From Candidatus Edwardsbacteria bacterium (GTDB lineage: Bacteria; Edwardsbacteria; AC1; EtOH8), in the NCBI GenBank assembly GCA_020053305.1, contig JAGVNJ010000006.1, positions 13,166 through 77,165 of the forward strand: 64,000 nt of DNA. Reading direction: 5' to 3'. Made by a program: the position numbers and the translations under genes. The notes under the pieces are model-generated. The model had not been told where the DNA came from and did no database searches. It saw only the letters and a list, made by a program, of their open reading frames with translations. Numbering within the stretch: position 1 is the stretch's first letter; each line of letters opens with the position of its first letter. Shown here in pieces: positions 5,241-55,129 of the stretch.

Positions 5241-5471
5241 GGTAATAATCCTTCTTTCCTTGGTAATCATCGTTCCGGCCCTGGTAATAACCTTCCTGAC
5301 CAAGGAAATATTCGTTCCAACCTGGGGGATAAGCTTGCTTACTATGGTAATATCCTTTCTCCCCTCGGTAAGAACCTTTCCAACTTAGGTAATAACCATT
5401 CTTACTAAGGTAATATTCAATCTTACCCAAGTAATCAGCGATCTTACCTGAGTAACATTTCTCACAACCTC
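5241..5471. repeat. Tandem repeat, 11 units of 21 bp (consensus about GGTAATAWCCTTYCTNACYWW)
   Basis: Units start at 5241, 5262, 5283, 5304, 5325, 5346, 5367, 5388, 5409, 5430 and 5451. On the minus strand this reads as heptad x-x-G-Y-Y-x-x repeats (ORF 5224-5430), but the array continues two units past that ORF's ATG. Confidence 0.9.
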
Positions 5472-5548
5472 AAACATTCCAAAGAATTACCGATATTAAA
5501 GAACTGCTGGCTTTTTTGACCTAAAACGTCCGTACCACGCACTAACAG

Positions 5549-5584
5549 TTTCAAACCTCTCAAACGTTTCAAACCATTTCAAAC
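5549..5584. repeat. Solo short tandem array (T/C)TTCAAAC x4, 9-10 nt period
   Basis: TTTCAAAC at 5549, TCTCAAAC at 5558, TTTCAAAC at 5567 and 5577, just downstream of the antiporter-like gene stop (5596). Same motif as the right array of four-helix-bundle element 4. Confidence 0.8.
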
Positions 5585-5595
5585 TGTTAAGGAGG

Positions 5596-8572: not shown

Positions 8573-8929
8573 TTATGCCCTCAGCGATCTTTCCAATGCC
8601 AGAAGTTTGAAATATAACTTGTCCAACAATGGTTCTGCGCCTTTAAACTCCGCCGGGGAAATATATTTTCGAGCGACGCCGATTTTCAGATTAGCTATTG
8701 TTTCCACCAAAGACCCGACAGCAATATTGACGTAATGGGCAAAGTCCTTTTTGGTGTGCTTGCAGCTTCCTTCAGCAATGTTCAGGGCAATTGAGGTTAC
8801 GGATCTCTTGCCTTGCTGTTTCAGGATATATTCTTCGGACTTGGGATACATCTCCAGCAAAGCGTACGCTTTATCAAAGCATTCCAGTGAAATATTCCAC
8901 ACTTCCAGTTTCTGAAACTTCAATTCCAT
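8573..8929 (-). CDS. Four-helix-bundle protein (IVS-protein family), copy 2
   Basis: MELKFQKLEVWNISLECFDKAYALLEMYPKSEEYILKQQGKRSVTSIALNIAEGSCKHTKKDFAHYVNIAVGSLVET. ATG at 8929; the track ORF starts at an upstream TTG. Confidence 0.8.
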   Translation of the reverse strand: MELKFQKLEVWNISLECFDKAYALLEMYPKSEEYILKQQGKRSVTSIALNIAEGSCKHTKKDFAHYVNIAVGSLVETIANLKIGVARKYISPAEFKGAEPLLDKLYFKLLALERSLRA

Positions 8930-9038
8930 ACTCACTCCATCCTTTCGTATACACAATTAATCGTCATCATGCCACCCTGTCTGGCATTTCAGACATCGCC
9001 AAACTTTCTAATTGCACTTCTCAAACGCCCTGCGGTCG

Positions 9039-9536: not shown

Positions 9537-9935
9537 CTATTGGGTCGCTTTATACTTTAACCCCTTAATGTCAGTATTACCAAGGTATTTCATTAGGCTG
9601 AAAATTAAACGATTTATCTCTTCTGCTAACAGATAAACCTTGTTAAAAACATCTCCCGTAATATATTTTTGATCCAGTGCTGCATACAACTGGCTCTTGA
9701 CTTCACCCACAGATCCTTTGGCTATCGATAAATACTGTATGAACTCTTTCCTGCCACCCCTGTCAAATCCTTCTGCAATGTTAGACATAATTGAAACAGC
9801 GGCCCTTCTTATCTGATCACGCAAACCAAAGTCTTTGGAAAAATTTCCATTCTTGGTAATTTCATAAACCAATCTGGTCAATTCTCTTGCTTTTTGCCAA
9901 GCGGTGATGTCTTCAAATTTCTTAAACGTAGCCAT
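9537..9935 (-). CDS. Four-helix-bundle protein (IVS-protein family), copy 3
   Basis: [27 protein letters not shown]...[45 protein letters not shown]. Confidence 0.85.
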
Positions 9936-10933: not shown

Positions 10934-11326
10934 TTATGCTTGCTTGTGCTTTGCGCCTTTAATGGGCGAGGTTTTTAGGTACGTTATCAATTTTGCTATC
11001 ATAATTGAAAGCCCGGCAGCTTCTTCTCTTAAAGTTTTACCCTCAACCTCGGTCAGAAACATCAATTCCTGAGCGATCCATAAATGGCTCCTCAACTCCC
11101 CGCAAGACCCCTTGGCAATATAAAGATACTGAATAAACTCCTTATTGTTTTCCCTTTCGAACCCTTCGGCAATATTCGCCATAACAGAAACAGCCGCCCG
11201 TCGCGTTTGATCGACCAAGGGATAATCCTTATGATACTTTTGTACGTCAGCAGCCGCATAAATTTTTAGTGTCAACTGCTTGGCAATCTGCCATATTTTC
11301 AGATCTTCAAAATTCTTTACCGTCAT
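10934..11326 (-). CDS. Four-helix-bundle protein (IVS-protein family), copy 4
   Basis: MTVKNFEDLKIWQIAKQLTLKIY...RRAAVSVMANIAEGFERENNKEFIQYLYIAKGSCGELRSHL. ATG at 11326. Confidence 0.85.
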   Translation of the reverse strand: MTVKNFEDLKIWQIAKQLTLKIYAAADVQKYHKDYPLVDQTRRAAVSVMANIAEGFERENNKEFIQYLYIAKGSCGELRSHLWIAQELMFLTEVEGKTLREEAAGLSIMIAKLITYLKTSPIKGAKHKQA

Positions 11327-11354
11327 CACACGCCTCTTTTCCAATGCCAACCAT

Positions 11355-11390
11355 TTCAAACGCTTCCAACAGCTTCAAACCGTTTCTAAC
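11355..11390. repeat. Right flanking array of element 4 (TTCAAAC-like x4, 10-nt period, inverted relative to the left array)
   Basis: TTCAAAC at 11355, TTCCAAC at 11364, TTCAAAC at 11374, TTCTAAC at 11384. The last overlaps the large-subunit stop codon. Confidence 0.8.
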
Positions 11391-13065
11391 TATGCTTTGC
11401 CGTCCAGCTCGACAACTCTTCCTGGCCGTATATCCTGATCTTCCCGGAATCAACATCCACCACCTCCATCCGCTCGGTGCAGGAAAAACAGGGATCTATG
11501 GAACCCACGATGATCGGCACGTCGGCCACCTGCTCGCCCCGGACCATGTCCGGAATGGTCGGCAGGTTGGGATAGGTGGGGCAGCGCACCCTCCAGCGCT
11601 CCGGCCGGTTGTTGCCGCCGGTCAGCAAAAAGTGGACATCCTCGCCCCGGGGAGCCTCCACCGCCGAAATGGCGATGCGCCCGGCCGGGATGTCCTGCCG
11701 GATCTCGGTGATGATGTCGCCCTCCGGCAGTTCCATTAAAGCGTCTAAAGATTGATTGACGATCTTGAAAGACTCCAGAGTCTCCAATATCCGGACCACC
11801 GTCCGGCCCCAAACGTCGTTGCTGTCGGCGGTTATCACCTTGAAGTCCACCGCATCGTAGGCGCAGTAGGGATGGTCCTTGCGGGCGTCCATATCCAGAT
11901 CGGCCGCCCGGGCCACCGGGCCCACCGCCGCCCACTCGTGACAGCCCTCCTTGTTGAGGATCCCCACCTTCTCCAGCCGCATCCGCAGTGTGGTGTCGTC
12001 CTTGACCGCATCCAGCACCGCCAGCCATTCCTTCTCCATATTGTTCATCTTGGTGCGGATCTCGGGCACCAGGGTCCGGGGGATGTCGCGCCGCACTCCG
12101 CCGATCAGGTTCATGCCGTAGGTCTTGCGGTTGCCGGTGATCTTCTCGCACAGCCACATGATGGGCTCCCGCATCCGCCAGGTCTGCATCAGCACGGTGT
12201 CGAAGCCGATGATGTGCCCGGCCACCCCCAGCCACAGAGCGTGGGAATGGATGCGCTCCAGCTCCAGCATGATGGTCCGGATGAAGTCGGCCCGCCGCGG
12301 CACCTTGATGTCGGCGGCGTGTTCCACCAGCTTGCAGAAGGAGACGTTGTGCACGAAGCCGCAGATGCCGCAGATCCGCTCGGCCATGAACGGTATCTGA
12401 TTGTAGGTCAGGGTCTGGTCGCCCAGTTTTTCGATTCCCCGGTGGGCGTAGAACCCCCGGTAGTCGACATCCACCACCTTCTCGCCCTCCACATAGAGCC
12501 GGAAATAGGTGGCCTCCTCGAACACCGGGAAATACGGCCCCATGGCCACCACCGTGGTGCCTGGAGGATTGTCCTTGAACTTATAGGCCTGCTCGGGATG
12601 GGACTCCGGTTTTTGGCTGTAATCAAATTCTTTGCGCAGGGGGTAGACCTCGGCCGGCCAGTCGTCGGCCAGTATCAGCCGCCGGGGATCGGGATGGTTT
12701 TCGAACTGTATCCCCAGCAGGTCCCGGATCTCGCGCTCCGACCAGTTGGCCCCGGCAATGACGTTGGTGATGGAGGGTATCCTGGGGGTGTGGGGATCGG
12801 CCGTCACGTCAAGGGTGATGAAGAAATGATCCTTGTCGAAGGTGAACAGGTGGTAGACCGCAAAGCGCTTTTTGATGTCCCGCTCGTCGGAGCCCACGCT
12901 GACTAAGTATCTGGCAGGGGTCTGGCGGTGCAGTATCTCCACCGCCTGCACCACCGCCTCCGGCTTGACCTCCACCCACAACTGATCGTGGATCGGCTCG
13001 GTGGATCCCATGAACCCGGCGCCCAATTTGGCTTTCAGTAAGCTTAGAATATCCTGTTTGGTCAT
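11386..13065 (-). CDS. hyfG: Group 4 [NiFe] hydrogenase large subunit (HyfG/HycE, NuoC-NuoD fusion type)
   Basis: N-terminal Ni-binding motif RICGICGFVH and C-terminal DPCFSCTER, followed by a 27-aa tail of the kind removed by a HycI-type protease. 559 aa. Confidence 0.95.
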   Translation of the reverse strand: MTKQDILSLLKAKLGAGFMGSTEPIHDQLWVEVKPEAVVQAVEILHRQTPARYLVSVGSDERDIKKRFAVYHLFTFDKDHFFITLDVTADPHTPRIPSITNVIAGANWSEREIRDLLGIQFENHPDPRRLILADDWPAEVYPLRKEFDYSQKPESHPEQAYKFKDNPPGTTVVAMGPYFPVFEEATYFRLYVEGEKVVDVDYRGFYAHRGIEKLGDQTLTYNQIPFMAERICGICGFVHNVSFCKLVEHAADIKVPRRADFIRTIMLELERIHSHALWLGVAGHIIGFDTVLMQTWRMREPIMWLCEKITGNRKTYGMNLIGGVRRDIPRTLVPEIRTKMNNMEKEWLAVLDAVKDDTTLRMRLEKVGILNKEGCHEWAAVGPVARAADLDMDARKDHPYCAYDAVDFKVITADSNDVWGRTVVRILETLESFKIVNQSLDALMELPEGDIITEIRQDIPAGRIAISAVEAPRGEDVHFLLTGGNNRPERWRVRCPTYPNLPTIPDMVRGEQVADVPIIVGSIDPCFSCTERMEVVDVDSGKIRIYGQEELSSWTAKHS

Positions 13066-13080
13066 TGTATTCCTGATAGT

Positions 13081-13503
13081 TTAAGAGGTTGAATTGGTTG
13101 AAGCTGTTGCAGAGGTTTTTGGGCACCTCTTGCCTTTAACTTTAGTGTTTAGTAAGTATGTGATAAAGTTGTACACCATCGTGGAAATCCCTGAAGCCAT
13201 TTCTCTGGCTTGCGTATGTTGTGCCGGGGTTATGTATCCCCTTTCTTGAGCAAATATCAGGTGGCTTCTCAGTTCTCCGCACGAACCTTTTGCAATAAAC
13301 AAAAACTGAATGAATTCTTTGTTGCTGCCTCTTTCAAACCCCTCGGCAATATTGGCCATTACCGAAACTGCTGCCCGTCGCGATTGATCCATAAGGCTTT
13401 TGTCGCATTTAAAAGTATTTGTTCCCGTTAAATCGTAAATCAAGTTAGCAAGATCTTTGGCCTGCTGCCAGATTTTTAAATCTTCAAATCTCTTGACGGT
13501 CAT
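13081..13503 (-). CDS. Four-helix-bundle protein (IVS-protein family), copy 5
   Basis: MTVKRFEDLKIWQQAKDLANLIYDLT...RRAAVSVMANIAEGFERGSNKEFIQFLFIAKGSCGELRSHL. Closest paralog of copy 4. Confidence 0.85.
   Translation of the reverse strand: MTVKRFEDLKIWQQAKDLANLIYDLTGTNTFKCDKSLMDQSRRAAVSVMANIAEGFERGSNKEFIQFLFIAKGSCGELRSHLIFAQERGYITPAQHTQAREMASGISTMVYNFITYLLNTKVKGKRCPKTSATASTNSTS
13087..13102. repeat. Left flanking array of element 5 (GGTTGAA x2)
   Basis: GGTTGAA at 13087 and 13096. It lies inside a short C-terminal read-through extension of copy 5 (…TSATASTNSTS) that the paralogs lack. Confidence 0.7.
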
Positions 13504-13513
13504 AGTTTAATCC

Positions 13514-13566
13514 CTTCAACCTTTTAAACCAGTGCGTCTTTTCAACATATTCAACCTTTTAAACGG
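13514..13566. repeat. Right flanking array of element 5 (TTCAACC/TTCAACA x3; includes two copies of TTCAACCTTTTAAAC)
   Basis: TTCAACC at 13515, TTCAACA at 13541, TTCAACC at 13550. Inverted relative to the GGTTGAA array. Confidence 0.8.
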
Positions 13567-14220: not shown

Positions 14221-14363
14221 GTTGCCCCTTATAAACATTTTAACCTTTTCAACTTTTTAACTTTTTTCTAGATTCCCGATGGATTTAACTCCACACTTGA
14301 TGCGGAACAGGAATAACATTACCTTGCCTTTTTCATAAATCATGTTAATCCTGTCAAGGGTTT

Positions 14364-16406
14364 CTATCCCACCATGAACATGATGAACAGCGCCACCGCC
14401 GCGCCCACCACCATCCACAGCAGATACCACTGCGGGAAACCGCTGTGGGTGCCGGCGAATACTTCCAGCACCTTGTGCCCCACGTAGACCAACGGACGGT
14501 ACAGCCAATCGTCCACGTCTAAAATATGTTTAAGCTTGAAGGATTTTTTGATATTGGGCAGTTTCCAATGTGGGTAGACCCCCTCCTGGGTGTACTTGCC
14601 GAACCGGATATTGAAATGCTGTTTGAAGGTCCTGAAATAGCTGCCCGAATAATAACGCACCGCCTCCGGACTCTGCACCTCGCCGGAATACCACAGGTTG
14701 GAAACCGTCTGCTTGGCCCCACCGGATTTCCAGATGATCCAGGCCGCCAACCCCAGCACCGCCAGGGCGATCAGCACGAACAGCGGCTTGTAGAAGCCCA
14801 CCAGTCCGGCGCCGAAATTAAGGGCCAGGCCCCACTGGCTGGTGTTTATTATCGAGGAGAGCTGCGGCCAATATGAGGGTGTTTGGAAGCCAATGACCGC
14901 CCGGTAGATCGCCTTGGCGATGGGCGCCACCAGCAGCCCCTCCAGGAACATCACCGCCACCAAAAGATACTGGGCGCTTCTCATCGTCCCCGGGACATCC
15001 GACTCTACCTTGGCATTCTCCGGCAGGCGCTGGCCCAAAAAGCTCATACCCAGGTATTTGACCATCATGGAGAGTGTTATCAGGCTGGTGAACAGGGCCA
15101 CCAGGCCGCATACCAAGATAAGAGGCACGGCAAACCCGCTGTTCAGGGTGGACTGGTAGATGAACCACTTGGAGGCAAAACCGTTCAGCGGTGGGATGCC
15201 GGCCACTGCCAGCCCGGCCACCAGGGCGGCCGCCGCGGTATGCGGCATGTATTTGCCCAGGCCGCCCAGCCGGTCCAGGTCGCGATGCCCGGTCTTATAC
15301 TGCAATGAGCCGGCCGATAAAAAGAGCATGGTCTTTATGGAGGCATGGTTGATGATGTGGTAGACCCCGGCCATCAGCGCGATGGTGGCCATGGCCGGGC
15401 TGATGGGCAGCAGGGCCAGGCCGGCCCCGACCGCCAGCAGGATATAGCCGATCTGCCCGATGGAGGAAAAGGCCAACAGCCGCTTGGCGTCCCTCTGGAA
15501 CAGGGCGGTCAATGTGCCCACGAACAGCGACACCGTGCCGAAGCAGACCATGATGATGCCCCATGTGTAGGAGAAGTGCGACACCGGCAGCATCCCCAAA
15601 AAGACCCGGAGGATCCCGTAGATTCCCATTTTGATCATCACCCCGGACAATATGGCCGATATCGGGGAGGGCGCCGCCGGGTGGGCGTCGGGCAGCCAGT
15701 CACCGAAGGGAAAGACGCCGGCCTTGGTGGCGAATCCCAGGAAGAACAACAGCAATAATGTGTGCAGCAGGACCGGGTTGTCAGTCCGCAGCAGTCCCAT
15801 CACCGGACCCAGGGCGTTGAAGTCGAAGGACTGGCTGTAGTGATAAAGGGTGTTGGCGGCGATGATGATCCCGGCGGTGCCAATGTGGGTCATCAAAAAA
15901 TATTTGAACCCGGCGTTGACGTTGGTCTTGTTGCCCCATTCGTAGACCACCAGGGCATATGAGGTCAGGGTCATGAATTCCCAGAAGACGATGAAGAAGA
16001 ACAGGTCCCGCACCACCACCACCCCGTACATGCCCAGCAGGAACAACAGCAACAGCGGATAGTAGCGGGCCAGCGATTCCTTGTAATGCTTCATGTATTC
16101 TATGGAATACAGCCCGGCGGCCCAGGAGACGATGGTGATCACCAGCAGGAAGATGGCCGACAACACATCCACCTTCAGCAGGAACGAAGCCCCCAGGCCG
16201 GCCACCTGGAATACCGGCTTGTCTAAGTTAAAGGTCCCGCTGGCCAGCACCTGCAGGGCTGTGTAGAAAAAGCCCAGCGAGGCCACAGTCTGGAAGAATA
16301 GGGATATCCAGCCGATGGTCCGCCGGGAATACGGCATCAGCAGGGTTACGGCAGCGCCCAGGAACAGCGTTGCCATGGAGAACAGAATGACGGTTTGAAG
16401 ATTCAT
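14364..16406 (-). CDS. hyfB: Hydrogenase-4 antiporter-like membrane subunit B (HyfB/HycC, NuoL-like)
   Basis: 680 aa polytopic protein with ATKAGVFPFGDWLPDAHPAAPSPISAILSG and a long C-terminal extension typical of NuoL/HyfB. Confidence 0.9.
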   Translation of the reverse strand: MNLQTVILFSMATLFLGAAVTLLMPYSRRTIGWISLFFQTVASLGFFYTALQVLASGTFNLDKPVFQVAGLGASFLLKVDVLSAIFLLVITIVSWAAGLYSIEYMKHYKESLARYYPLLLLFLLGMYGVVVVRDLFFFIVFWEFMTLTSYALVVYEWGNKTNVNAGFKYFLMTHIGTAGIIIAANTLYHYSQSFDFNALGPVMGLLRTDNPVLLHTLLLLFFLGFATKAGVFPFGDWLPDAHPAAPSPISAILSGVMIKMGIYGILRVFLGMLPVSHFSYTWGIIMVCFGTVSLFVGTLTALFQRDAKRLLAFSSIGQIGYILLAVGAGLALLPISPAMATIALMAGVYHIINHASIKTMLFLSAGSLQYKTGHRDLDRLGGLGKYMPHTAAAALVAGLAVAGIPPLNGFASKWFIYQSTLNSGFAVPLILVCGLVALFTSLITLSMMVKYLGMSFLGQRLPENAKVESDVPGTMRSAQYLLVAVMFLEGLLVAPIAKAIYRAVIGFQTPSYWPQLSSIINTSQWGLALNFGAGLVGFYKPLFVLIALAVLGLAAWIIWKSGGAKQTVSNLWYSGEVQSPEAVRYYSGSYFRTFKQHFNIRFGKYTQEGVYPHWKLPNIKKSFKLKHILDVDDWLYRPLVYVGHKVLEVFAGTHSGFPQWYLLWMVVGAAVALFIMFMVG

Positions 16407-17670: not shown

Positions 17671-17747
17671 ACACTCACCTCTTTTATTTACAATAAACAT
17701 ACTACCAAAATATAAATCAGCGAAAATCAGCGTCCTATTAAATTCCT

Positions 17748-17797
17748 TTACCTTATTAATTTTATCAGCGGCAATCCCACCAGCGGGGCGATCACGC
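17748..17797. repeat. Copy A of the ~50-bp 3' end of the antiporter-like gene at 19773-21224
   Basis: TTTACCTTATTAATTTTATCAGCGGCAATCCCACCAGCGGGGCGATCACG is nearly identical to 18907-18962 and 19773-19826. Translated, it gives VIAPLVGLPLIKLIR*. Confidence 0.9.
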
Positions 17798-18187
17798 TCC
17801 GCCCAATCTTTTTTTTATTTCGTTCCTGATCCGTTCTGCGGCTTCCTGGGCGCGTTTGGCTTCCTTGCTGGATATATCGCTGGGCCAGTGCACCGGGTAC
17901 CGGGCTTCTATGTAGAAATCCGTCAGGAATTCGCATTCTTCTTTCAGCGGCAACAAGGTTTCGTCTTTGGCCGCGCATACCCGCAACAACTCGGGCAGAT
18001 TGTGAATTTTTCTGAAATCCAAATTATGGGCGATAACGAATGCTTTCAGATATTTCTCGGCAGATTGCTGAAAATGGAAACAGACTTGCGGCAAGAATTC
18101 GTCTCTTTCTTTGAGGATGAAATTGGCAAACCGGAGATCCTCATCCGCTTTACCAAGCCATTCCTTAACGATGCCCGGGTCAGCCAT
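17792..18187 (-). CDS. HEPN domain protein (toxin partner of a MNT/HEPN pair)
   Basis: MADPGIVKEWLGKADEDLRFANFIL...FHFQQSAEKYLKAF...EARYP is a HEPN pattern. It overlaps the MNT stop by 8 nt, and its own stop lies inside repeat copy A. Confidence 0.75.
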   Translation of the reverse strand: MADPGIVKEWLGKADEDLRFANFILKERDEFLPQVCFHFQQSAEKYLKAFVIAHNLDFRKIHNLPELLRVCAAKDETLLPLKEECEFLTDFYIEARYPVHWPSDISSKEAKRAQEAAERIRNEIKKRLGGA

Positions 18188-18500
18188 AAAGCACCTTCCC
18201 TTCCGCAAAAACGCACTTCAGGAACGGATCGCCCATCCGCAGCCTGTTTTCCAGTTCTTCCTTTTTGTAGATAAGATAGTCTACCGGCAAATGGCTTTCG
18301 ATCAGTTTCCGCACTTCCCGCATCCGCTCCCGGCTGTTGACTGGCACATCCTGCTTGATCACCAAAAAATCCAAATCGCTGTCCGGGCCAAAACCGCTGC
18401 CTGCGGCCGAACCGAACAAAATTACTTTTTGCGCATGGTATTTCTCAACCAGCTGACCGGCTATTGATTCTATTTCTTTTTTTAGTTCTTCGTCTGACAT
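18180..18500 (-). CDS. Minimal nucleotidyltransferase (MNT) domain protein
   Basis: KVILFGSAAGSGFGPDSDLDFLVI carries the GSxxxGxxxxxSDxD pol-beta NTase motif. ATG at 18500. Confidence 0.75.
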   Translation of the reverse strand: MSDEELKKEIESIAGQLVEKYHAQKVILFGSAAGSGFGPDSDLDFLVIKQDVPVNSRERMREVRKLIESHLPVDYLIYKKEELENRLRMGDPFLKCVFAEGKVLYG

Positions 18501-18528
18501 GATTAACAGAGCCTTTCCATTTGAATGT

Positions 18529-18846
18529 TTACCTGCAAGGCCCGCCGAACTCGATGAAAGCATCTGGGGGTTTCCGGGTGCCGCCCCAACTTGATATTCC
18601 AATTGGGAATGTCAAGTTTTTAAATTCCTCCGGCGTAAGCTGGAACATGAAATCCTCGGGGAACCGGTAGAGATTCCTTTTCACCGCTTTGTTCAGGTTG
18701 AAGGTCTCTATGCCGTATAATGCAGCCAGATCCTTGTCAAACATCACTTTCTGTCCGCGGATAATTCGGATCAGCCGTTCAACCCGCTCGTCCGGGACAA
18801 CCGCTTTCTGCCGGCCCAGGGCGTTTTCATTTCCGTCAACTTTCAA
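18529..18846 (-). pseudogene. ORF6N-domain (KilA-N-related DNA-binding) protein, apparently C-terminally truncated
   Basis: IRGQKVMFDKDLAALYGIETFNLNKAVKRNLYRFPEDFMFQLTPEEF...SSWGG is the ORF6N core. The ORF ends shortly after it (family members are usually longer). It has a TTG start and abuts the MNT/HEPN pair. Confidence 0.5.
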
Positions 18847-18906
18847 CGCGACTTCAACCTTTTAACCGCTTCCCTCACCCACCGGGGGAGGGATCAAGGG
18901 AGGGGT

Positions 18907-18962
18907 CTACCTTATTAATTTTATCAGCGGCAATCCAACCAGCGGGGCGATCACGGTCAGCG
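18907..18962. repeat. Copy B of the ~50-bp 3' end of the antiporter-like gene at 19773-21224
   Basis: CTACCTTATTAATTTTATCAGCGGCAATCCAACCAGCGGGGCGATCACGGTCAG. The stop codon of the 18957-19766 gene lies inside it. Confidence 0.9.
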
Positions 18963-19766
18963 CCTAATGCCTAGACTGATGGACACTTCATTGGTCGTTT
19001 GTTTCGGCGCCGGATAATCACCAGAATCAATGTTCCAACTGCTCCATAAGTAGGGAGAAGGAACGGAATTGTTCATCCACGAATGATCGAAACGGACCCT
19101 GGCAAAAAGGGAATTTGCCACGGTTGCTTCACCTATAAACCCGACGCCTTGGTACAAAATGCTTGGAGTATAATACCAGGGCTGATAAAATTTCTTGATG
19201 GTGTACCCGAGACAGACCATGTAATTTTGTTTCAATTTTAACACGGGACCGACGAACGCCTCCCGCATTCTGTAGCCGCTGCTGGGATAGATGTTTTCGG
19301 CAATGGAAAACGACGCCGTCAGCCCAAAATGAGACGTGGGATACAGAGTCTGCCGAAGAACCAATCCCTGCATTATAACGCTGTTGGATATCGGTCCTAC
19401 ACAAGCATTGGCCCAACTACTCTTCAGTGCCAGGCTACGGAAACCTGCTTGGATGTGCAGCAATCTACCTTTGGCCAGAGTGACGCCGAAAACCAAGTCT
19501 GATACTTTTTGCTCATAGGTTCCGGAATTTAACTGGGATCTTTTTGTCGCATACAAATATTCGCCGAAGATCCCATGCCCGCCCTCGCACGCCATGTAAT
19601 CGACGGATAGGCCTAGCCCACTGCAAATGGGAAAATCGTAAACCTGTATACTACTGTGCTTTGCGGCACATTGGAATTTTTGAGGCCATGACAATTGGGC
19701 ATCTGCACAGGTGCCGAGCAAACATATGGCAGCCGGCACATACAGGAATTTAAAACCCCTCCGCAT
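18957..19766 (-). CDS. Hypothetical secreted protein, possible beta-barrel
   Basis: MRRGFKFLYVPAAICLLGTCADAQ signal peptide, alternating hydrophobic pattern, C-terminal ...VSISLGIRR. No recognisable domain. Confidence 0.45.
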   Translation of the reverse strand: MRRGFKFLYVPAAICLLGTCADAQLSWPQKFQCAAKHSSIQVYDFPICSGLGLSVDYMACEGGHGIFGEYLYATKRSQLNSGTYEQKVSDLVFGVTLAKGRLLHIQAGFRSLALKSSWANACVGPISNSVIMQGLVLRQTLYPTSHFGLTASFSIAENIYPSSGYRMREAFVGPVLKLKQNYMVCLGYTIKKFYQPWYYTPSILYQGVGFIGEATVANSLFARVRFDHSWMNNSVPSPYLWSSWNIDSGDYPAPKQTTNEVSISLGIRR

Positions 19767-19772
19767 ATGTCC

Positions 19773-21224
19773 CTATCTTATTAATTTTATCAGCGGCAGG
19801 CCCACCAGCGGGGCGATCACGGTCAGGATCATTAATACGATCAATATAACCTTGGAGTTCATGGGAATATTTATGGCCTGGTTCACCTTGGCCGACGGCT
19901 CGCCGAAGAACACCTTGTGGGCCACGAAGAAATACCAGGCGAAGGCGATGATGATCTCGGCCACAAAGGGGATGATCAGGAACACCGCGGTCTTGCCGCC
20001 GATCTCTATGACCCCTTCCATCAGGAACAGCTTGGACCAGTAGCAGGACAGCGGGGCGATACCGGTGACGCCCAGGGTCCCGATGATGAAGGCGATGGAG
20101 GTCAGGGGCATGGCCTTGGTCAGGCCGCCCAGCTCATCCATGTTGCGGGTGCCGGTGGCGTAGGCGATGGCCCCCACGCAGATGAACAGCAGGGCCTTGG
20201 CCGGCGCGTGGCAGATGATATGCAGAATGGCCCCCTGATAGCCGTAGTGCGAGCCCATCACCCCCAGGCCGAGACCCAGGAAGATGTATCCCAAATGGGC
20301 GATGGTGGAGTAGGCCAGAAATTTCTTGATGTCGGTCTGGAAGAAGAACAGGAACAGCGAGGCCAGCATGGTCATCACCGCGAACACCGCCACCAGCAGG
20401 CCCAGCCCGTAGGAGAAGCCCACGGTGGCGATGGTGACCCGGGCCATCAGGTAGACCCCGGCCTTGACCATGGCCGCGGCGTGCAGGTAGCACGATACCG
20501 GGGTGGGGGCCGCCATGGCGTTGGGCAGCCAGGCGAAAAATACGATCTGGCTGGACTTGGCCCAGGCCGCTATCAGGAACAGGATGAAGATCACGGTCTT
20601 CATCTGGGGGGTCAGCAGGTTGATGGCGTCGAAGCCGAAACTTCCGGTGTTGACGAACAGCACGATTAGGGCGATAAGGAAGAAAATCCCTCCGAAGAAG
20701 GTCTTAATTAACGCTTCAAACCCGGCATCCAGCGATTCCTTGTTGTGATAGTATGAGATCAGGGCCCAGGAGCAGATGGTGGTCAGCTCCCAGAAGATGA
20801 ACAGCTGCAGGAAATTGGCCGACACCGAGACCCCGACCATGGCTCCCAGAAATAAAAGATGCCACAGGTAGAACCGCCTCTTGCCATCCTTAACCGGGTG
20901 GAACTTGTTCTCCGGCGAGAGATAGTCCCGGGAGTAGAAGGTGACCAACAGCCCGATGATGGTGGTCACCAGCAGCAGCACCATGGACAGCGGATCAATG
21001 AAAACCCCCATAATCCCGGAGACATCCGGCAGCCACGGCCAGTTGATCAGCGGCAGGGAGAACCTTTGGCCATAGGCCAGCAGCACCACCAGCAGGGAAA
21101 GGATGGTTACCAGCGAGGCCACCACCGCGGCGAAGATATCCTGCTTCTTTTCCGGCAGCCACTGGGTTATCAAGGCCCCCAGAAAGGGCAGTATCAGCAT
21201 TACGATAAGTATGGAACCTAGCAT
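19773..21224 (-). CDS. Hydrogenase-4 antiporter-like membrane subunit (HyfD/HyfF, NuoN/M-like)
   Basis: 483 aa polytopic protein with WAKSSQIVFFAWLPNAMAAPTPVSCYLHAA. Confidence 0.85.
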   Translation of the reverse strand: MLGSILIVMLILPFLGALITQWLPEKKQDIFAAVVASLVTILSLLVVLLAYGQRFSLPLINWPWLPDVSGIMGVFIDPLSMVLLLVTTIIGLLVTFYSRDYLSPENKFHPVKDGKRRFYLWHLLFLGAMVGVSVSANFLQLFIFWELTTICSWALISYYHNKESLDAGFEALIKTFFGGIFFLIALIVLFVNTGSFGFDAINLLTPQMKTVIFILFLIAAWAKSSQIVFFAWLPNAMAAPTPVSCYLHAAAMVKAGVYLMARVTIATVGFSYGLGLLVAVFAVMTMLASLFLFFFQTDIKKFLAYSTIAHLGYIFLGLGLGVMGSHYGYQGAILHIICHAPAKALLFICVGAIAYATGTRNMDELGGLTKAMPLTSIAFIIGTLGVTGIAPLSCYWSKLFLMEGVIEIGGKTAVFLIIPFVAEIIIAFAWYFFVAHKVFFGEPSAKVNQAINIPMNSKVILIVLMILTVIAPLVGLPLIKLIR

Positions 21225-21254
21225 AATCTTCTATAATAGTATGGGTTTATATTT

Positions 21255-21395
21255 TTTGATCGTCATTCTGAGTCTAGCAAGCCGAAGAATCTTTTTGTCA
21301 TCCTGAGAAATCTATCCGCCCGACAGGCCGAACGGGTGACACCCGTCATCCTTCAACCTGCATTGCTCCGAAGTTTACTCAGCATGACAATCGTA
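21255..21395. repeat. REP-like nested palindromic intergenic element (GTCATYSYGAG-arm family)
   Basis: CGTCATTCTGAG ... CTCAGCATGAC outer arms, with an inner TGTCATCCTGAG. Confidence 0.6.
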
Positions 21396-21475
21396 CCGGG
21401 GTAATCTCACACAACGACACCAAGCATTTTCAAACATGGTTCTTGTGAATCTCCGTGCCTTGGTGTGAAAATATC

Positions 21476-22936: not shown

Positions 22937-23320
22937 TTATTGTGTTTTTTCCACTATTGATCCGAAAATTTTCATCAACTGGGTGGCTTCATCGCAAAGA
23001 ATTTGTCTTTCTTTTTCTATTTTCTCATTATCTGTTTCAATTAGATTAAGCCAGTATCTTGATTCTTTGGCTTCCTTGCGGGATATCTTGATGTGCATTA
23101 AAAAATCTTTACGGCTTAAGGCCTCATTGGCCTCTATGTAATTGGCTCCGACAGATCCGCTGGAGCGTACTAATTGTTTGATTATTTCGTTATTGACCAC
23201 ATCCTTTGGCAGTTTTCTTACAAAAGCGATAACAGCCCTAGCGAATTTTAATGTTCGTTCTTCAAGATCATACTGCCTGGATTTTTCTGTTTTTGTATTT
23301 GTATTTTGGCTTTCGGACAT
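22937..23320 (-). CDS. Four-helix-bundle protein (IVS-protein family), copy 6
   Basis: YDLEERTLKFARAVIAFVRKLPKDVVNNEIIKQLVRSSGSVGANYIEANEALSRKDFLMHIKISRKEAKESRYWL. Confidence 0.8.
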   Translation of the reverse strand: MSESQNTNTKTEKSRQYDLEERTLKFARAVIAFVRKLPKDVVNNEIIKQLVRSSGSVGANYIEANEALSRKDFLMHIKISRKEAKESRYWLNLIETDNEKIEKERQILCDEATQLMKIFGSIVEKTQ

Positions 23321-28299: not shown

Positions 28300-28701
28300 T
28301 TATTTGTCATCGCAATTATAGCTGGCGGACACGTTAATGGCAATACCCCCCCGGGCATTGAAGAATCCCGTCACCTCGCAACGGCGCGGTTTGGCGATCT
28401 TGACGATGTCGTCCAAAATTTTATTTACCGCCTCTTCGTGGAAGATCCCCATGTTACGATAGGACCACAGGTAGAGTTTTAATGATTTGGATTCTATGAT
28501 CAGCTTGCCTGGCATGTAGTTGATGGTGATGGTCCCGAAGTCCGGCTGACCGGTGATGGGGCAAACCGCGGTGAACTCGGCCGATTCCAGCACCACCTGG
28601 TAATCACGCTTGGGATACTTGTTGGGAAAGGCCTCCAGTTTGCCGCTGGGCTTGGTGATCTTTTTACCCAATAATGTCAATCCGTAGTTTTTCTTTGGCA
28701 T
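28300..28701 (-). CDS. queF: NADPH-dependent 7-cyano-7-deazaguanine reductase (unimodular type)
   Basis: EFTAVCPITGQPDFGTITINY and SLKLYLWSYRN motifs. Confidence 0.9.
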   Translation of the reverse strand: MPKKNYGLTLLGKKITKPSGKLEAFPNKYPKRDYQVVLESAEFTAVCPITGQPDFGTITINYMPGKLIIESKSLKLYLWSYRNMGIFHEEAVNKILDDIVKIAKPRRCEVTGFFNARGGIAINVSASYNCDDK

Positions 28702-28734
28702 AATGTTTCCTTCGTTTTTTATATTTATCGAATA

Positions 28735-30717
28735 TTATTTAACCACCACTAATTTCTTGATAGCGCTATTTCCCAGGGCTTTCAAGACATACAGGTAAAC
28801 GCCGTTGGAAACCTTGCGCCCGTTGTTGTCCGTGCCGTTCCAACTTACCTTATTCAAACCGGCATCGCCTTTGCCATCCAGGCTACGGATGATTTGACCG
28901 GTGATGTTGTATATCTCCAAGCTGTAATTGCCGGCCTTTGGCAGGTTAAACGCTATCTTGGTATTTCCCTTAACCGGGTTTGGCTGGTTCTGGTTCAGGC
29001 TCAGTTTGCCGCCATTAACGGCAATGGGGGTGCCGTTAATTCCCCCCGGGATGCCAATAATAACCCATACTATATTGGAGGTATCACTATAACCCTGGGC
29101 ATCCTTTGCCAACAATACATAACTGAAAGTGTCCACTGGTATATGTGGAAATGGCCAATCATCAAAACATCTGACGGTATCTTGGCCGGCCCAGTCAACT
29201 GTATCTATGACCCTAAACTGCGACCAACTGCCGGCCACGCCCTGCCTGCGCAATAGAAAGAAACTGTCCACCGTAGCATCAGTAGATGAACGCAGCCACC
29301 ATAAAGTAATCGGATCGGCGACTGGGAAGCTAACCACCGTCAGGTTTAAATCCGGCGGACTTGGTGGATTGAAAATAGTGCTGTCGGCTTTATATACTGC
29401 ATAAACATTGTTGTGGTTAGCGCCGATTGCGGCATACACACCAACCTGATCTGGGGCGGTAAAAATGGTCGAATCCCAGTTGGCGCCGCCATCGGGGGAG
29501 CAGAATGACTGGGTGCGTGTATAGTTGGTGTTGAGCACACCGCAAATAGCGATGCTATCGCTGGGAGTGGGTCCGGTGAACGCAACCGAGGGCCAGGCAT
29601 AGTAGGGTGCCGGCACAATGATTTCGAACATCCATATGCCGCCCCACAAGCCGTAGCCAATGCCGCCTTCGTCAATGTAGCCCGAAATGGTAAAAGCGTC
29701 GCTGATGATGGAATGATAGACTATCATCGGATAGCCGTCCGAGGAAACATCTATGCCCGGGAAACCTGCCCTGCGAGGGGCCAGGTTGGCTTTTACCCCG
29801 ACGCCGCTGCCGGGAAGATAGTAGTTGTAGCCGATGTTGCGGAGGGGGCCGTTATTGGCGCCGACCGGGCCATAGGTCCAGGCGCAAATAATGTTCTGGG
29901 CTGCATCCATGGCAATACCCTGGGTGTTGCCGGTGCAGGCCCAGTCATAAGCGGTGGTGCCCATGTCCTGCACACCGATGGTAGTATCCAGACCGCCGAG
30001 GTCCATGTCCACCTTGGCATATCTCAAGTGCAGGGTATCGTCAGCGCCCACTCCCTGGATGTTGGAGCCGGGTGCCCGGGAATCGTCGGCGTAAAACAAG
30101 TGGATGCCGTTGATCGCTCGTTTGGCTATCTTGGGATACACTTGGCAGGAATCGCTGGGATACAAGGCCTGGATGTAATTGGAGACGTTCACCGCTGATC
30201 CCCAGGTGGTGCCGTTGTCGGTGGAACGGGAGATGTAGATGTCGCCCTCGTAGACATTCTCCCAGCCGGGATAGCCACCCATGTAATAGTCGCCCCAGCT
30301 TACATACAGGTCCCCATTGTCGGCCACGCACATGCCGGTCCATCCGTGGAATACCAGGCCGCTGTCCACCGCCACCACCCCGGTGGCTGCGGACCAGAAC
30401 CAGGTATAGCTATAGCCGTTGAAGTCGTTGCCGCCGGCGAACGAAAACACAGGGCTTCCATCGGCCTTGATAGCAACCTGCGAAGGGTTGAACAACACCC
30501 ATTTGCCGGAGGCCGCGTAGTTGAAATTGGTAACATTGACGGGCGTGGTATAGGTCACGCCAAAATCGGTGGACGTGGCAATATACATATTGCTGGTTAA
30601 AGTGAAGGCCTTGGCGCCAGTCTTTTTTGTGTTCAGCCGGGGAGCATAGCTGTCATTAAAAGCAAAAGCCGATGCTGTCATGGCCAGGACCAATGCAACG
30701 ATTAAAACTTTTTTCAT
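28735..30717 (-). CDS. Secreted protein with C-terminal T9SS/FlgD-Ig-like sorting domain, paralog 1
   Basis: Signal peptide, BNR-like STDxGxTW motifs (SRSTDNGTTWG), C-terminal LNQNQPNPVKGNTKIAFNLPKAGNYSLEIYNITGQ...NGVYLYVLK. Confidence 0.7.
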   Translation of the reverse strand: MKKVLIVALVLAMTASAFAFNDSYAPRLNTKKTGAKAFTLTSNMYIATSTDFGVTYTTPVNVTNFNYAASGKWVLFNPSQVAIKADGSPVFSFAGGNDFNGYSYTWFWSAATGVVAVDSGLVFHGWTGMCVADNGDLYVSWGDYYMGGYPGWENVYEGDIYISRSTDNGTTWGSAVNVSNYIQALYPSDSCQVYPKIAKRAINGIHLFYADDSRAPGSNIQGVGADDTLHLRYAKVDMDLGGLDTTIGVQDMGTTAYDWACTGNTQGIAMDAAQNIICAWTYGPVGANNGPLRNIGYNYYLPGSGVGVKANLAPRRAGFPGIDVSSDGYPMIVYHSIISDAFTISGYIDEGGIGYGLWGGIWMFEIIVPAPYYAWPSVAFTGPTPSDSIAICGVLNTNYTRTQSFCSPDGGANWDSTIFTAPDQVGVYAAIGANHNNVYAVYKADSTIFNPPSPPDLNLTVVSFPVADPITLWWLRSSTDATVDSFFLLRRQGVAGSWSQFRVIDTVDWAGQDTVRCFDDWPFPHIPVDTFSYVLLAKDAQGYSDTSNIVWVIIGIPGGINGTPIAVNGGKLSLNQNQPNPVKGNTKIAFNLPKAGNYSLEIYNITGQIIRSLDGKGDAGLNKVSWNGTDNNGRKVSNGVYLYVLKALGNSAIKKLVVVK

Positions 30718-30825
30718 GAGTTGGATTCCTTTTTAAGGTTTTAAATTAGTTGCTGACCGGCATATTTGTTGCGCCGTTTTTTTTGCTTAATCAGGATTTT
30801 ACCTGTGCCGGTTTTCACCGGCTTT

Positions 30826-31020
30826 ATTCAAGATATTCTCACTTCCCCGCTGTTCCCGTCCACCGTGATCTCGTCCCCGTCCTTTATCTCCGCCGTGGCC
30901 CGTGACCCCCACCACCTGGTAATCCCGCTTGGGGTACTTGTTGGGGAAGACCTCCAGCTTGCCGCTGGACCTGGTGACCTTTTTACCCAATAATGTCAGT
31001 CCGTAGTTTTTCTTTGGCAT
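30826..31020 (-). pseudogene. Duplication junction: 5' fragment of queF (30911-31020) fused to a 3' fragment of the PEP-utilising enzyme gene (30826-30917)
   Basis: MPKKNYGLTLLGKKVTRSSGKLEVFPNKYPKRDYQVV matches the queF N-terminus. 30826-30900 matches 33166-33240. The junction falls at a shared CACCACC. Confidence 0.85.
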
Positions 31021-31053
31021 AATTGTTCCTTATTTTTAATATTTATCAAAATA

Positions 31054-33060
31054 TCATTTAACCACCACTAATCTCTTAGTAGCGCTCTTGTCCAGAGCCT
31101 TCAATGTATACAGGTAAACGCCATTGGGAACCTTGCGTCCGTTCTTATCGCAGCCGTTCCAGCTGATCTTGTTCATACCGGGGTTGCCCTGGCCTTTCAG
31201 GACGTTAGTTATCTGCCCGGTTACGTTGTAAATGGTGATGGAATATCTGCCAGCTCGTGGCAAGTTGAAAGAAAACTCTGTATTTCTGCTAACCGGGTTG
31301 GGTCGGTTCTGGTTCAGGCTCAATTTGCCGCCATTAAATGCAATGGGAGTACCCTTAATTCCCAAGATACTATCGCCAACAATAACCCATACCATATTGG
31401 AGGTATTGCTATAGCTCCAGGGACTTTTTGCTAACAATACATAATAGAAAGTGTCCACCGGGGAATATGGTAATGTCCAGCCATCAGAGCACCTGCCGGT
31501 ATCTTGACCAGCCAAGGCAACTGTATCCATGGCCATAAACTGCGCCCAACTGCCGGCCTCGCCCACCCTGCGCAATAGAAAGAAACTGTCCACGGTGGCG
31601 TCAGTGGATGAACGCAGCCACCATAAAGTAATGGAATCGGCGGTTGGCGCGCCAACCGTCAGATTCAGAGTTGGGGCATCATAAGAAGGAGGATACACGA
31701 CGCTGTCGGCATAGAAAACCCCATAAATACCCAGCTTGCTGGCGCCAATTGCCGCATATGTGCCGGATCCTTCGAACCGGGGAAACCCTCCGATGATTAC
31801 CGATATTAAAGGAGAGGTCCAGGCCGGTAAAAACGTATAATTTACATCGGCGATATTTCCTCCGCAAAATGCCACGCTATCCGATGGGTTCCCGCCCGCG
31901 TCAATGGCGCTGCCAACAAATGTCACCGATGGCCAGGCATAGGCAGACAGTAATACAGTGTCTTGGGTGGTCCACAACCCGGTGCCTACGCCGCCCGTAT
32001 CAACTATCGCGGCACCCACTAAAACGCCGTCCAATAAGGAATGGTAGGCAACGCAGACGGCTCCATTCACGTTTGATACATCTATGCCGGGGAAACCGGC
32101 CCGCTGAGGAGCCAAGTTATTTACCATTGTTCCAGCGCCGGAACCGGGTATATAATAATTATAGCCGATGTTCCTAAGGGCACCGCCGGGACTAGCAATA
32201 GGTCCATATGTCCAGGCGCAAGCCGCCTGCTCTATGCTGTCAATAGCAATACCCTGGGTATTGCCGGTAATCGCCCAGTCGTAAGCGGTCCAACCCATGT
32301 CATTGACGCCCACCGTAACGTCAAGCCCGCTTAAGTCCAAGTTAACCTTGGCATAGCGCAAAAACACGGAATCCGCAACGCCAATCCCCTGGATAAAGGA
32401 GCCGGGAGACTTGGAGTCATCGGCCCAAAGCAAATGCACGCCCGATATTGCCCGGCGGGCCAGCTTGGGATATGTCTGGCAGGAATCGTTGGGGTTTAAC
32501 GCCTGGATGTAATTGGAAACGTTTACCTTGGCGCCCCAGCTGGCTCCGTTATCGGTGGAGCGGGCGATAAAGATGTCGCCGGCTGTGGTATTCTCCCATC
32601 CCGGATAAAAGCCGCCATAATAATCGCCCCAGCTGACGTAGATATCGCCGTTATCGGCCACGGCTACGCTAGACCAAACATGCATGCTGGTGCTGCTGTC
32701 CACCACCACCAGGCCGGTGGCCGCGGACCAGAACCAGGTGTGGCTGTAGCCGTTAAAATCATTGCCTCCGTCGAAAGCCACTACCGGATTGCCGTCAGGT
32801 TTTATAGCTATTTGTGAGGGCACACCCATAAGCCATTTACCGTCCAATCCGTAGCTGATAAAGTCGGTAATTTTTGTCAAATCGCTATAGGCCTGCCCTC
32901 TATCGGTTGAATAGGCGAAATAAATGTTGCTTATGGTGTAGACTGGTTTGGCCTCGGCTTTTTTAGAGGGCGGGTGCGGAGCAAAATCATCCGTTACAGC
33001 ATGGGCCGCCATTGTAAATACTATCAGCAACCATAGGCACAAAATCAAACTTTTTTTCAT
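31054..33060 (-). CDS. Secreted protein with C-terminal T9SS/FlgD-Ig-like sorting domain, paralog 2
   Basis: Collinear with 28735-30717, with identical blocks such as ITLWWLRSSTDATVDSFFLLRR and GGNDFNGYS.TWFWSAATG, but otherwise substantially diverged. Confidence 0.7.
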   Translation of the reverse strand: MKKSLILCLWLLIVFTMAAHAVTDDFAPHPPSKKAEAKPVYTISNIYFAYSTDRGQAYSDLTKITDFISYGLDGKWLMGVPSQIAIKPDGNPVVAFDGGNDFNGYSHTWFWSAATGLVVVDSSTSMHVWSSVAVADNGDIYVSWGDYYGGFYPGWENTTAGDIFIARSTDNGASWGAKVNVSNYIQALNPNDSCQTYPKLARRAISGVHLLWADDSKSPGSFIQGIGVADSVFLRYAKVNLDLSGLDVTVGVNDMGWTAYDWAITGNTQGIAIDSIEQAACAWTYGPIASPGGALRNIGYNYYIPGSGAGTMVNNLAPQRAGFPGIDVSNVNGAVCVAYHSLLDGVLVGAAIVDTGGVGTGLWTTQDTVLLSAYAWPSVTFVGSAIDAGGNPSDSVAFCGGNIADVNYTFLPAWTSPLISVIIGGFPRFEGSGTYAAIGASKLGIYGVFYADSVVYPPSYDAPTLNLTVGAPTADSITLWWLRSSTDATVDSFFLLRRVGEAGSWAQFMAMDTVALAGQDTGRCSDGWTLPYSPVDTFYYVLLAKSPWSYSNTSNMVWVIVGDSILGIKGTPIAFNGGKLSLNQNRPNPVSRNTEFSFNLPRAGRYSITIYNVTGQITNVLKGQGNPGMNKISWNGCDKNGRKVPNGVYLYTLKALDKSATKRLVVVK

Positions 33061-33170
33061 GAGTTGGATTCCTTTTTAAGGTTTTAAATTAGTTGCTGCC
33101 CGGCATATTTGTTGCGCCGTTTTTTCTTGTTTAATCAGGATTTTACCAGTGTGATTTTCCCCGGCTTTAT

Positions 33171-35816: not shown

Positions 35817-35836
35817 TATCAATTTATTCGCCAAAT

Positions 35837-36376: not shown

Positions 36377-36381
36377 AATAA

Positions 36382-36912: not shown

Positions 36913-36933
36913 GAGCCCTCCTTCAATCGGATT

Positions 36934-37410: not shown

Positions 37411-37430
37411 CCCAGTTTGTTATTTAAAGA

Positions 37431-38258: not shown

Positions 38259-38313
38259 TATAACAACTCCTCGTCTTTCCGCGCCGGATCACCGACTTTG
38301 TATGGTTTTTAGT

Positions 38314-47583: not shown

Positions 47584-47612
47584 TTGACTTTATCCTCTAT
47601 TTTTATTAAAAT
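47584..47612 (+). promoter_or_regulatory. Sigma70-type promoter of the retron ncRNA (TTGACT-17 nt-TAAAAT)
   Basis: TTGACT at 47584-47589, 17-nt spacer, TAAAAT at 47607-47612. It ends 7 nt before the a1 repeat. Confidence 0.65.
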
Positions 47613-47618
47613 GACAGT

Positions 47619-47771: not shown

Positions 47772-47797
47772 TTTTTTATTATTTAAGATTTACATAA

Positions 47798-55004: not shown

Positions 55005-55027
55005 TTTATCCTTTTGGGTTAAATATT

Positions 55028-55118: not shown

Positions 55119-55129
55119 TGTTTTATCCC

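Follow-up and report, generated by a model that had tools for sequence, protein, structure and literature searches.

How does a gene come to be followed by two further copies of its own last fifty or so nucleotides (nt), each of them lying behind small genes that have nothing to do with it? The question is raised by hyfD, a gene of a hydrogenase operon in a stretch of 64,000 nt (contig JAGVNJ010000006.1 of a Candidatus Edwardsbacteria bacterium; hereafter the window, meaning the whole stretch analysed), where the 3' end of this gene occurs three times and delimits a tandem array of gene cassettes. The original prediction, made from the DNA letters, read the arrangement as two successive site-specific insertions in tandem at one attachment site. 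The tandem addition at the 3' end of a gene inside an operon, with a displaced end left behind each time, is retained here, whereas the site-specificity is not. We contend that the locus is best explained as a recombination scar array at a gene-gain hotspot, without a dedicated integrase, and about half of our confidence goes to one route by which it may have formed, namely homology-anchored recombination between related genomes that adds a new hyfD end and a cassette beside the gene.

The hyfD array and its repeated gene end

The array follows the plan (tail + spacer + cassette)n, in units of 0.9-1.2 kb, and its final cassette has no tail behind it. Its parts, together with the anchor gene and the gene next downstream, are as follows.

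19773..21224, minus strand: hyfD, the conserved anchor gene, an antiporter-like subunit of 483 amino acids (aa; Pfam Proton_antipo_M/N)
19773..19826, minus strand: tail3, the functional hyfD end, made up of its last 54 nt with the TAG stop included
18957..19766, minus strand: cassette A, an ORFan of 269 aa, with its ATG 6 nt past the hyfD stop and its TGA inside tail2
18907..18960, minus strand: tail2, a displaced copy of the hyfD end, 54 nt long, which differs from tail3 at 4 places, synonymously in each case
18860..18906, minus strand: spacer behind tail2, made up of ACCCCTCCC, the hairpin CCCTCCCCCGGTGGGTGAGGG (18872-18892) and GGTTAAAAGGTTGAAG
18529..18846, minus strand: ORF6N' (cassette B), an ORF6N/PDC-S05-type gene truncated to an N-terminal fragment (Pfam positions 3-79 of 86)
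18180..18500, minus strand: MNT nucleotidyltransferase (cassette B), 106 aa, true start at 18500, the antitoxin-type partner
17792..18187, minus strand: HEPN (cassette B), 131 aa, with its TGA (17792-17794) inside tail1, in GTGATC
17748..17796, minus strand: tail1, a displaced copy of the hyfD end, 49 nt long and closed by a TAA stop
17701..17747, minus strand: ancestral-type post-hyfD spacer, GGACGCTGATTTTCGCTGATTTATATTTTGG, which resembles the native spacer behind hyfD in the related loci L006, L013 and L022
16420..17700, minus strand: TPR protein (third cassette), with an N-terminal signal or transmembrane segment and a GC content of 0.33; no tail behind it
14364..16406, minus strand: hyfF-like antiporter subunit, 680 aa, which adjoins hyfD downstream in empty loci

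The protein end of hyfD, encoded by the third copy as the true 3' end of the gene, reads ...VIAPLVGLPLIKLIR*. A 45-mer allowing up to 3 mismatches had 3 matches in the window, the three tails only, as against 0 expected from 100 shuffles, and self-BLAST gave pairwise tail identities of 97.9% over 48 nt, 94% over 50 nt and 95.6% over 45 nt, which bears out the three predicted copies. The further prediction that the stop codons of the preceding cassette genes fall inside the repeats was likewise confirmed, the TGA of cassette A (18957-18959) lying within CTGACC of tail2 and that of HEPN within GTGATC of tail1. Tail1 is the oldest tail copy of the window.

The cassettes differ in how well they can be placed. 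The 269-aa product of open reading frame (ORF) A has a signal-peptide-like N-terminus and no Pfam match, and credible homologues were found in neither 5.8e9 nor 1.8e9 proteins, except for the window's own 212-aa call (100% identical); one further match, to a 1768-aa repeat protein, was weak. The beta-barrel-like label once given to it was not confirmed, the AlphaFold model being uninformative (pLDDT 31), and exact-sequence look-ups for the window HyfD, ORF A (269 aa) and ORF6N' returned no result. Cassette A is strain-specific, known from this strain only; a Joint Genome Institute (JGI) contig of 1120 nt, L021, is 100% identical to window positions 18625-19744 and thus takes in tail2 and the hairpin spacer together with the adjoining end of A and start of ORF6N'. 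For the genes of cassette B and the TPR gene the predicted identities stand, with Pfam and PADLOC in agreement. ORF6N' covers only the first ~100 positions of PADLOC models that are 177-306 aa long, and the MNT and HEPN genes are adjacent with an 8-nt overlap (Pfam NTP_transf_2/Polbeta and HEPN), a gene arrangement that points to a putative toxin-antitoxin pair. Searches with the cassette DNA found no plasmid match and a single weak phage match confined to the ORF6N domain.

All of this lies within a group-4 [NiFe]-hydrogenase (Hyf-type) operon that spans 2 to 24.4 kb on the minus strand. Homologues of hyfD go by the name hydrogenase-4 component D; among named lineages, candidate division TA06 is the nearest. 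Low-GC small genes, comprising six 23S_rRNA_IVP genes, one OMP beta-barrel gene and the array cassettes, sit among the core genes of the operon, and the same operon occurs without any of the window's inserts in L002, whose HyfD is 91% identical. Every insert runs in the direction of the operon, and no terminator-like sites were found between the inserts on the coding strand; the inserted genes are therefore probably expressed by read-through. Within the array, known RNA families, promoters and terminators were found in nothing exceeding chance, and the tails have no Rfam match.

The junction among relatives and the age of its joints

The junction between hyfD and hyfF was compared among related loci and found in the following states.

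Window: three cassettes and three tails
L008: two lipoproteins and two tails
L005, L022/23, L024: MNT-HEPN
L001, L009-12, L020: one SBBP/T9SS gene
L013/14: a 214-aa gene
L006: a lipoprotein
L002, L004, L007, L015-19: empty junction

The cassette states that had been proposed as a check in relatives are thus present in numbers of 0, 1, 2 and 3. Array content varies between close relatives with a common anchor gene: the window, L001, L008 and L020 have HyfD identities of 98-99% (92-94% at the nucleotide level), yet they carry different cassettes. L008 is an independent JGI contig, with a second hyfD tail of 61-70 nt behind its first lipoprotein gene. Behind the single cassettes of L001, L006, L009 and L013 no decayed tails exceeding shuffles were found. 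The anchor gene is itself a mosaic among close relatives, the window grouping with L020 at 6 informative sites of the last 102 nt. A general intergenic repeat, the reading that had been named as one that would overturn the prediction, is ruled out, as the tail occurs three times in the window and only at the three tails, the spacer hairpin occurs once, and the junction is polymorphic. Short hairpin-type intergenic repeats (gtcattctgag..., gtcatcctgag..., ctcagcatgac) do lie upstream of hyfD at window positions 21250-21400, and these are duplicated in L008 as well (3458-3707).

The spacers carry a record of their own. The tail2-type hairpin spacer is also found behind the hyfD tails of L008 (both), L020 and L022, where it stands ahead of four different cassettes, and the CGCKGAT motif has a single intergenic occurrence in the window. 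Genomes have exchanged flanks: behind tail2 of the window, on the gene-proximal side, stands the hairpin spacer, and behind tail1 the CGCTGAT spacer CGCTGATTTATATTT, and the arrangement is reversed in L022. In the window the ancestral-type downstream spacer is found at the most distal tail copy, where the entry of new units beside the gene would be expected to leave it. A separate motif, GTTTAAAAGGTTGAA(G), recurs just 5' of unrelated cassette genes (IVP, OMP, ORF6N', lipoproteins), at window positions 13513-13560, 14240-14270 and 18860-18875, in L001 (15111-15143), in L008 (5285-5300) and in L022 (after 4705), and it could be an expression signal or the remnant of a common cassette end.

Cassette B has a longer history at this junction than cassette A. 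Its closest MNT homologues among 5.8e9 proteins are also located directly behind hyfD, in L022 (82%), L024 (77%) and L005 (64%), and these identities roughly track those of HyfD (83, 76 and 76%). The displaced hyfD tail abuts the HEPN end in the window, L024 and L005, and it abuts a GGTTGG remnant of HEPN in L022, so that the joint between the HEPN end and the tail is colinear in all four, which fall in both major HyfD clades. Given that the joint is common to four lineages in both clades and that the MNT and HyfD identities run in parallel, the most economical reading of these sequences is a single old joint. Two successive insertions are therefore too simple an account, as the HEPN|tail1 joint appears to be old and common to four diverged lineages and cassette A is strain-specific. 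In L022, a TA06 genome, tandem ~20-nt units (GGTTAGNAAGGNTRTAACCAR) replace most of HEPN (5330-6200), and MNT and the displaced tail are kept.

The tails do not show the age of this joint. The displaced tail of L024 matches its own native tail at 30/30 positions, including the lineage-specific CTT TTG, and tail1 of the window has the window's own codons ATA AAA TTA ATA; the displaced tail of L005 is decayed (a frameshift and non-synonymous changes) and adjoins a HEPN pseudogene with an in-frame stop. Because displaced tails resemble the functional tail of their own genome despite the old joint, the comparison indicates that the tails evolve in concert, which may proceed via gene conversion or repeated recombination within them. 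Among seven tails compared (three from the window, two from L008 and the native tails of L001 and L020), 9 codons are variable and all changes are synonymous, including the 4 that are private to displaced copies (chance p about 0.007), so that the copies either gathered their differences while serving as functional gene ends or were converted from such an end not long ago. The view that all-synonymous differences prove recent import from another strain is weakened by the old HEPN|tail joint, and gene conversion explains them equally well.

Site-specific insertion weighed against homology-anchored recombination

A site-specific mechanism should leave an enzyme, a constant crossover point or a recognizable core. 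As the original prediction had noted, no integrase or transposase is present in the window, and neither is any other recombinase domain, among about 60 ORFs scanned across the 64 kb. The upstream repeat boundaries vary from event to event, being -49 and -54 in the hyfD of the window, -61/-70 in that of L008, and -30 and -49 in hyfF, and these alignments speak against a constant att core or crossover point across insertions. The tails with their flanks showed no single-strand fold (DNA folding z-scores of -1.1 to +2.1), only the separate spacer hairpin folding, and no hairpin or inverted-repeat core was found within the tail. A Xer/dif-like or other inverted-repeat core was accordingly rejected on sequence inspection, an integron-type attC was ruled out since the tails do not fold, and no IntI integrase with an adjacent attI and promoter occurs in the window. 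A look for the 50-mer elsewhere, especially near a recombinase, had been proposed as a check; a degenerate 42-mer tail pattern had 0 matches in IMG/VR and 1 locus in JGI metagenomes, again a hyfD end (L008), and diverged copies escape such exact-pattern scans, the second, non-exact tail copy of L008 having come from BLAST.

The same architecture is found at other genes. Behind a 242-aa OMP-like gene of L009 the final 50 nt of hyfF are repeated (98%; 11072-11120 / 11954-12003), and in L005 the last 33 nt of hyfF are repeated behind another HEPN+MNT pair (14447-14479 / 15235-15267). A 33-nt spacer repeat stands on either side of the OMP gene in L001 (15111-15143 / 15815-15847). In the window itself it is the PPDK gene (33171-35858) whose end is displaced:

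30828..30916, minus strand: displaced PPDK tail, the last ~89 nt of the PPDK gene

A 7-nt microhomology, GGTGGTG, joins this tail to a duplicate of QueF's first 111 nt (30910-31020), and the fusion sits between two diverged paralogues secreted by the type IX secretion system (T9SS; 31054-33060 and 28735-30717). Across the locus (window 28300-35858) tail and spacer are 95% identical between units and the gene bodies 80-87%, and in L001 and L002 PPDK is directly followed by QueF, without an insert. At hyfD the microhomology seen was limited to a possible overlap, CTGA/GTGA, between the joints and the stop codons of the cassettes. With varying boundaries, neither core nor hairpin, no recombinase in the window and the architecture present at two unrelated genes, the notion of a site-specific attachment site is not supported. 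Four GNAT acetyltransferase genes stand in a row at window positions 35837-38859, with a ~536-nt tandem duplication (36384-36423 vs 35848-35887, 97.5%).

Tail duplications were absent from the IVP, OMP, SBBP and TPR insertions. The six 23S_rRNA_IVP (four-helix-bundle) genes (2559-2945, 8573-8956, 9537-9935, 10934-11359, 13081-13503 and 22937-23320) sit between core genes of the operon, are all co-oriented and are absent from the operon of L002; in L009 a PDDEXK_3 gene occupies the slot of one of the window's IVP genes.

Homology-anchored recombination would bring these observations together as follows. DNA of a related genome, with a hyfD end and a different downstream cassette, would enter the cell and recombine with the resident hyfD by ordinary homology. 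For the second joint we infer one of two pathways. A re-circularised fragment in which no more than the final 50-70 nt of hyfD were left may have integrated through a single (Campbell-type) crossover, or a join of the illegitimate, microhomology type may have formed within the last 50-70 nt of the resident gene. Both have precedents: in E. coli the single crossover of partly degraded, re-circularised fragments duplicated the homologous end in 56/60 events, and homology-facilitated illegitimate recombination uses microhomologies of 3-10 bp (PMC3240628). The intact new hyfD end and the new cassette would then adjoin the gene, the old end and all that lies behind it would move downstream, and repeated rounds would build (tail + spacer + cassette)n. 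The tails would thereafter act as short homology patches, which may be homogenised against the functional tail by gene conversion and may swap flanks between genomes; recombination among them could re-insert cassettes or, probably, delete them, and so give rise to the patchy distribution among relatives.

Variable tail lengths, the involvement of several genes, a microhomology joint, a truncated ORF6N' and a mosaic hyfD all follow from such a process, and the similarity would stop at the stop codon because donor and recipient begin to differ there. The truncation of ORF6N' is further evidence of illegitimate joints at the locus.

Several points weigh against this account. In four of the seven repeats the end lies no more than 3 nt from the stop codon, and in two events the last cassette ORF ends in the joint itself (A in CTGACC, HEPN in GTGATC). 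Joints at stop codons are not obviously expected of random illegitimate joining; homology that ends at the stop codon, together with microhomology at TGA, could be their source. The visible joints all lie 30-90 nt from the gene end, a range that may reflect survivorship, long repeats being unstable. In model bacteria, homologies of 49-54 nt are poor substrates for RecA-type recombination. Moreover, an anchored mechanism leaves the first arrival of a foreign cassette beside hyfD in need of another step, and a recombinase may be encoded outside the 64-kb window.

This last point leads to an explanation that we regard as unlikely and that nevertheless has much of the architecture on its side, namely that the units are integrase-less (cis-mobilisable, cargo-only) elements moved by a tyrosine or serine recombinase encoded elsewhere, with the last ~50 nt of hyfD as their site and a replacement end carried by each. 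Direct repeats that reach from a point within the gene to its stop codon flank each unit, as they do in elements that restore a 3' end; the newest unit adjoins the gene and the ancestral spacer stands on the oldest tail; the cassettes are all co-oriented, and their last ORFs end at the joint, like those of compact cassette systems. Tandem accretion with three att copies is, in addition, documented for CIME/ICE elements and tycheposons. Such a site should nevertheless be constant, and here the repeat boundaries vary between events, the tail has neither an inverted-repeat core nor a hairpin, and the 64 kb are free of any recombinase. Nor does the tail pattern occur in IMG/VR or in JGI metagenomes beyond the L008 hyfD end. 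The displaced tails follow the codon choices of their own lineage, and the same architecture at hyfF and PPDK involves unrelated tail sequences, the PPDK joint being a microhomology fusion with the head of the downstream gene.

An origin in place would do without an incoming hyfD allele: slippage or unequal crossing-over at microhomologies would make small tandem duplications across the gene end and so open neutral space between two tails, foreign genes would later be inserted or exchanged in this space, and the tails would stay similar through gene conversion. In its appearance the PPDK locus is exactly what a tandem duplication of [PPDK tail - T9SS gene - QueF head] by way of microhomology would give, the spacer repeat on either side of the L001 OMP gene fits as well, and concerted evolution of the tails is evident. 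We nevertheless doubt this explanation for the array. Since the repeats of the window reach only as far as the stop codon, no spacer would remain after a duplication for a later insertion to enter, and cassettes A and B are mutually unrelated and hence not duplicates. Even at PPDK the contrast between tail and spacer (95%) and gene bodies (80-87%) is better fitted by stacked diverged alleles or by later conversion.

With a similarly small share of our confidence, it can be speculated that the displaced tails are more than scars and that they are the functional part of a cassette system that needs no integrase. Having captured the last 30-90 nt of a conserved host gene, a cassette would loop out as a circle by tail-by-tail recombination, and in any relative the circle would then be added anew behind that gene, regardless of the local downstream content. 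This would amount to a recombination-handle analogue of integron cassettes, inside operons. In a stronger version, a so far unrecognised enzyme would make the long target duplications bounded by stop codons.

Less probable still is a dedicated mechanism of an unrecognised kind, reverse-transcriptase-linked or based on a staggered-cut nuclease, that inserts cassettes right behind the stop codons of transcribed genes and duplicates 30-90 nt. The ends of the repeats do cluster at the stop codons of three different genes, co-orientation is strict, the packing is tight and promoterless, and many small, selfish-looking genes (23S_rRNA_IVP, PDDEXK_3, MNT/HEPN) are spread across the operon; the window also holds a reverse transcriptase. 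The latter, the only one in the window, is that of a retron which is a standard type II-A defence system, and no enzyme candidate is linked to the cassettes. The duplication lengths are widely spread, the insertions of IVP, OMP, SBBP and TPR genes come without tail duplication, and the microhomology joint at PPDK requires no special enzyme. The type II-A retron (47600-49650) lies between gltX and glnS, with an NDT-like effector (47798-48694) and the reverse transcriptase (48691-49650). A near-palindrome of 58 nt (47693-47750) stands ahead of it and may be part of its non-coding RNA. At 52360-58977 HsdS, HsdM and HsdR make up a type I restriction-modification operon, with a Fic/SoFic-like gene (55130-56173) between hsdM and hsdR.

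Finally, that an assembler joined strain variants through the shared 50-mer is hardly credible: the source is a metagenome and close strains with different cassettes do exist, but a path from the end of A or of HEPN back into a tail needs real reads over those joints, single-nucleotide polymorphisms distinguish the three copies, L021 reproduces the joint of A, tail2 and B at 100%, which also makes a chimeric assembly, the possible flaw in the original prediction, very unlikely, and the architecture recurs in the independent assemblies L008, L005, L022/L023, L024 and L009.

The array beside known systems

The locus offers a base-pair view of how an uncultured lineage stacks accessory genes (surface proteins, toxin-antitoxin pairs) in a conserved energy-metabolism operon and leaves the operon unbroken, and the gene gain at hyfD shows no visible mobile-element machinery. 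For annotation it carries a caution, in that an integrase-borne element cannot be read from direct repeats of a gene's 3' end alone. Searching for displaced gene tails is easy, and a genome-wide census of them could measure the shares of general recombination and of integrases in the gene gain of poorly known phyla; it could also test whether short captured patches of homology render cassettes transferable.

Among integrase-based families, the accretion of cis-mobilizable and of integrative and conjugative elements (CIME/ICE; the ICESt1 family at fda) and tycheposons (PMC5704250; bioRxiv 10.1101/2020.12.28.424599) are close in appearance, as they too show three direct repeats of the target 3' end, cargo-only units without an integrase of their own, and arrivals that push older units further in. 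They differ in relying on a tyrosine recombinase and a constant att core and in having units of kilobases to tens of kilobases, whereas the hyfD array combines a window without a recombinase, variable boundaries and units of 0.9-1.2 kb with the occurrence of the pattern at three different genes. Integron arrays resemble it in their short, promoterless, co-oriented and tightly packed cassettes between repeats of ~50-110 nt, in ORF stops that lie in or beside the repeat, and in the proximal position of the newest cassette; unlike integrons, the window has no IntI, attI or Pc, and the repeats are the coding end of a gene with no attC-like hairpin fold. Of the defining traits of the integrase-based families that could be looked for at hyfD, neither a recombinase in the window nor a constant core nor an attC-like fold was found; direct repeats from the target 3' end do flank the units, in three copies in the window and two in L008.

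The single-crossover events of E. coli (PMC3240628) are alike in joining an insertion to a direct duplication, of variable length, of the remaining homologous end, without a site-specific enzyme. They are a laboratory case, with duplications of 109-950 bp of a plasmid-borne lacZ end, whereas the repeats of the array measure 30-90 nt and are natural and recurrent, and long-term concerted evolution has followed in the array.

The closest counterparts in mode of growth are the orphan-immunity arrays of type VI secretion systems (T6SS) and the Rhs and contact-dependent inhibition (CDI) arrays. For the T6SS immunity arrays of V. cholerae and for Rhs orphans a sequential-displacement model via homology-facilitated illegitimate recombination was put forward (PMC5361080). 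As at hyfD, these have a conserved upstream anchor, new modules enter beside it and older ones are pushed downstream and kept, no integrase is involved, and close strains differ in array content (PMC5361080). Their cargo, however, is tied to the anchor (a toxin tip and its immunity gene), whereas that of hyfD is unrelated to it (an ORFan, a toxin-antitoxin pair and a TPR protein); the displaced piece at hyfD is just 49-70 nt of the end of an unchanged housekeeping gene; and the array is located in the middle of a respiratory/hydrogenase operon. The hyfD array, in short, looks like CIME/ICE accretion, tycheposon and integron arrays, and works like the sequential-displacement arrays.

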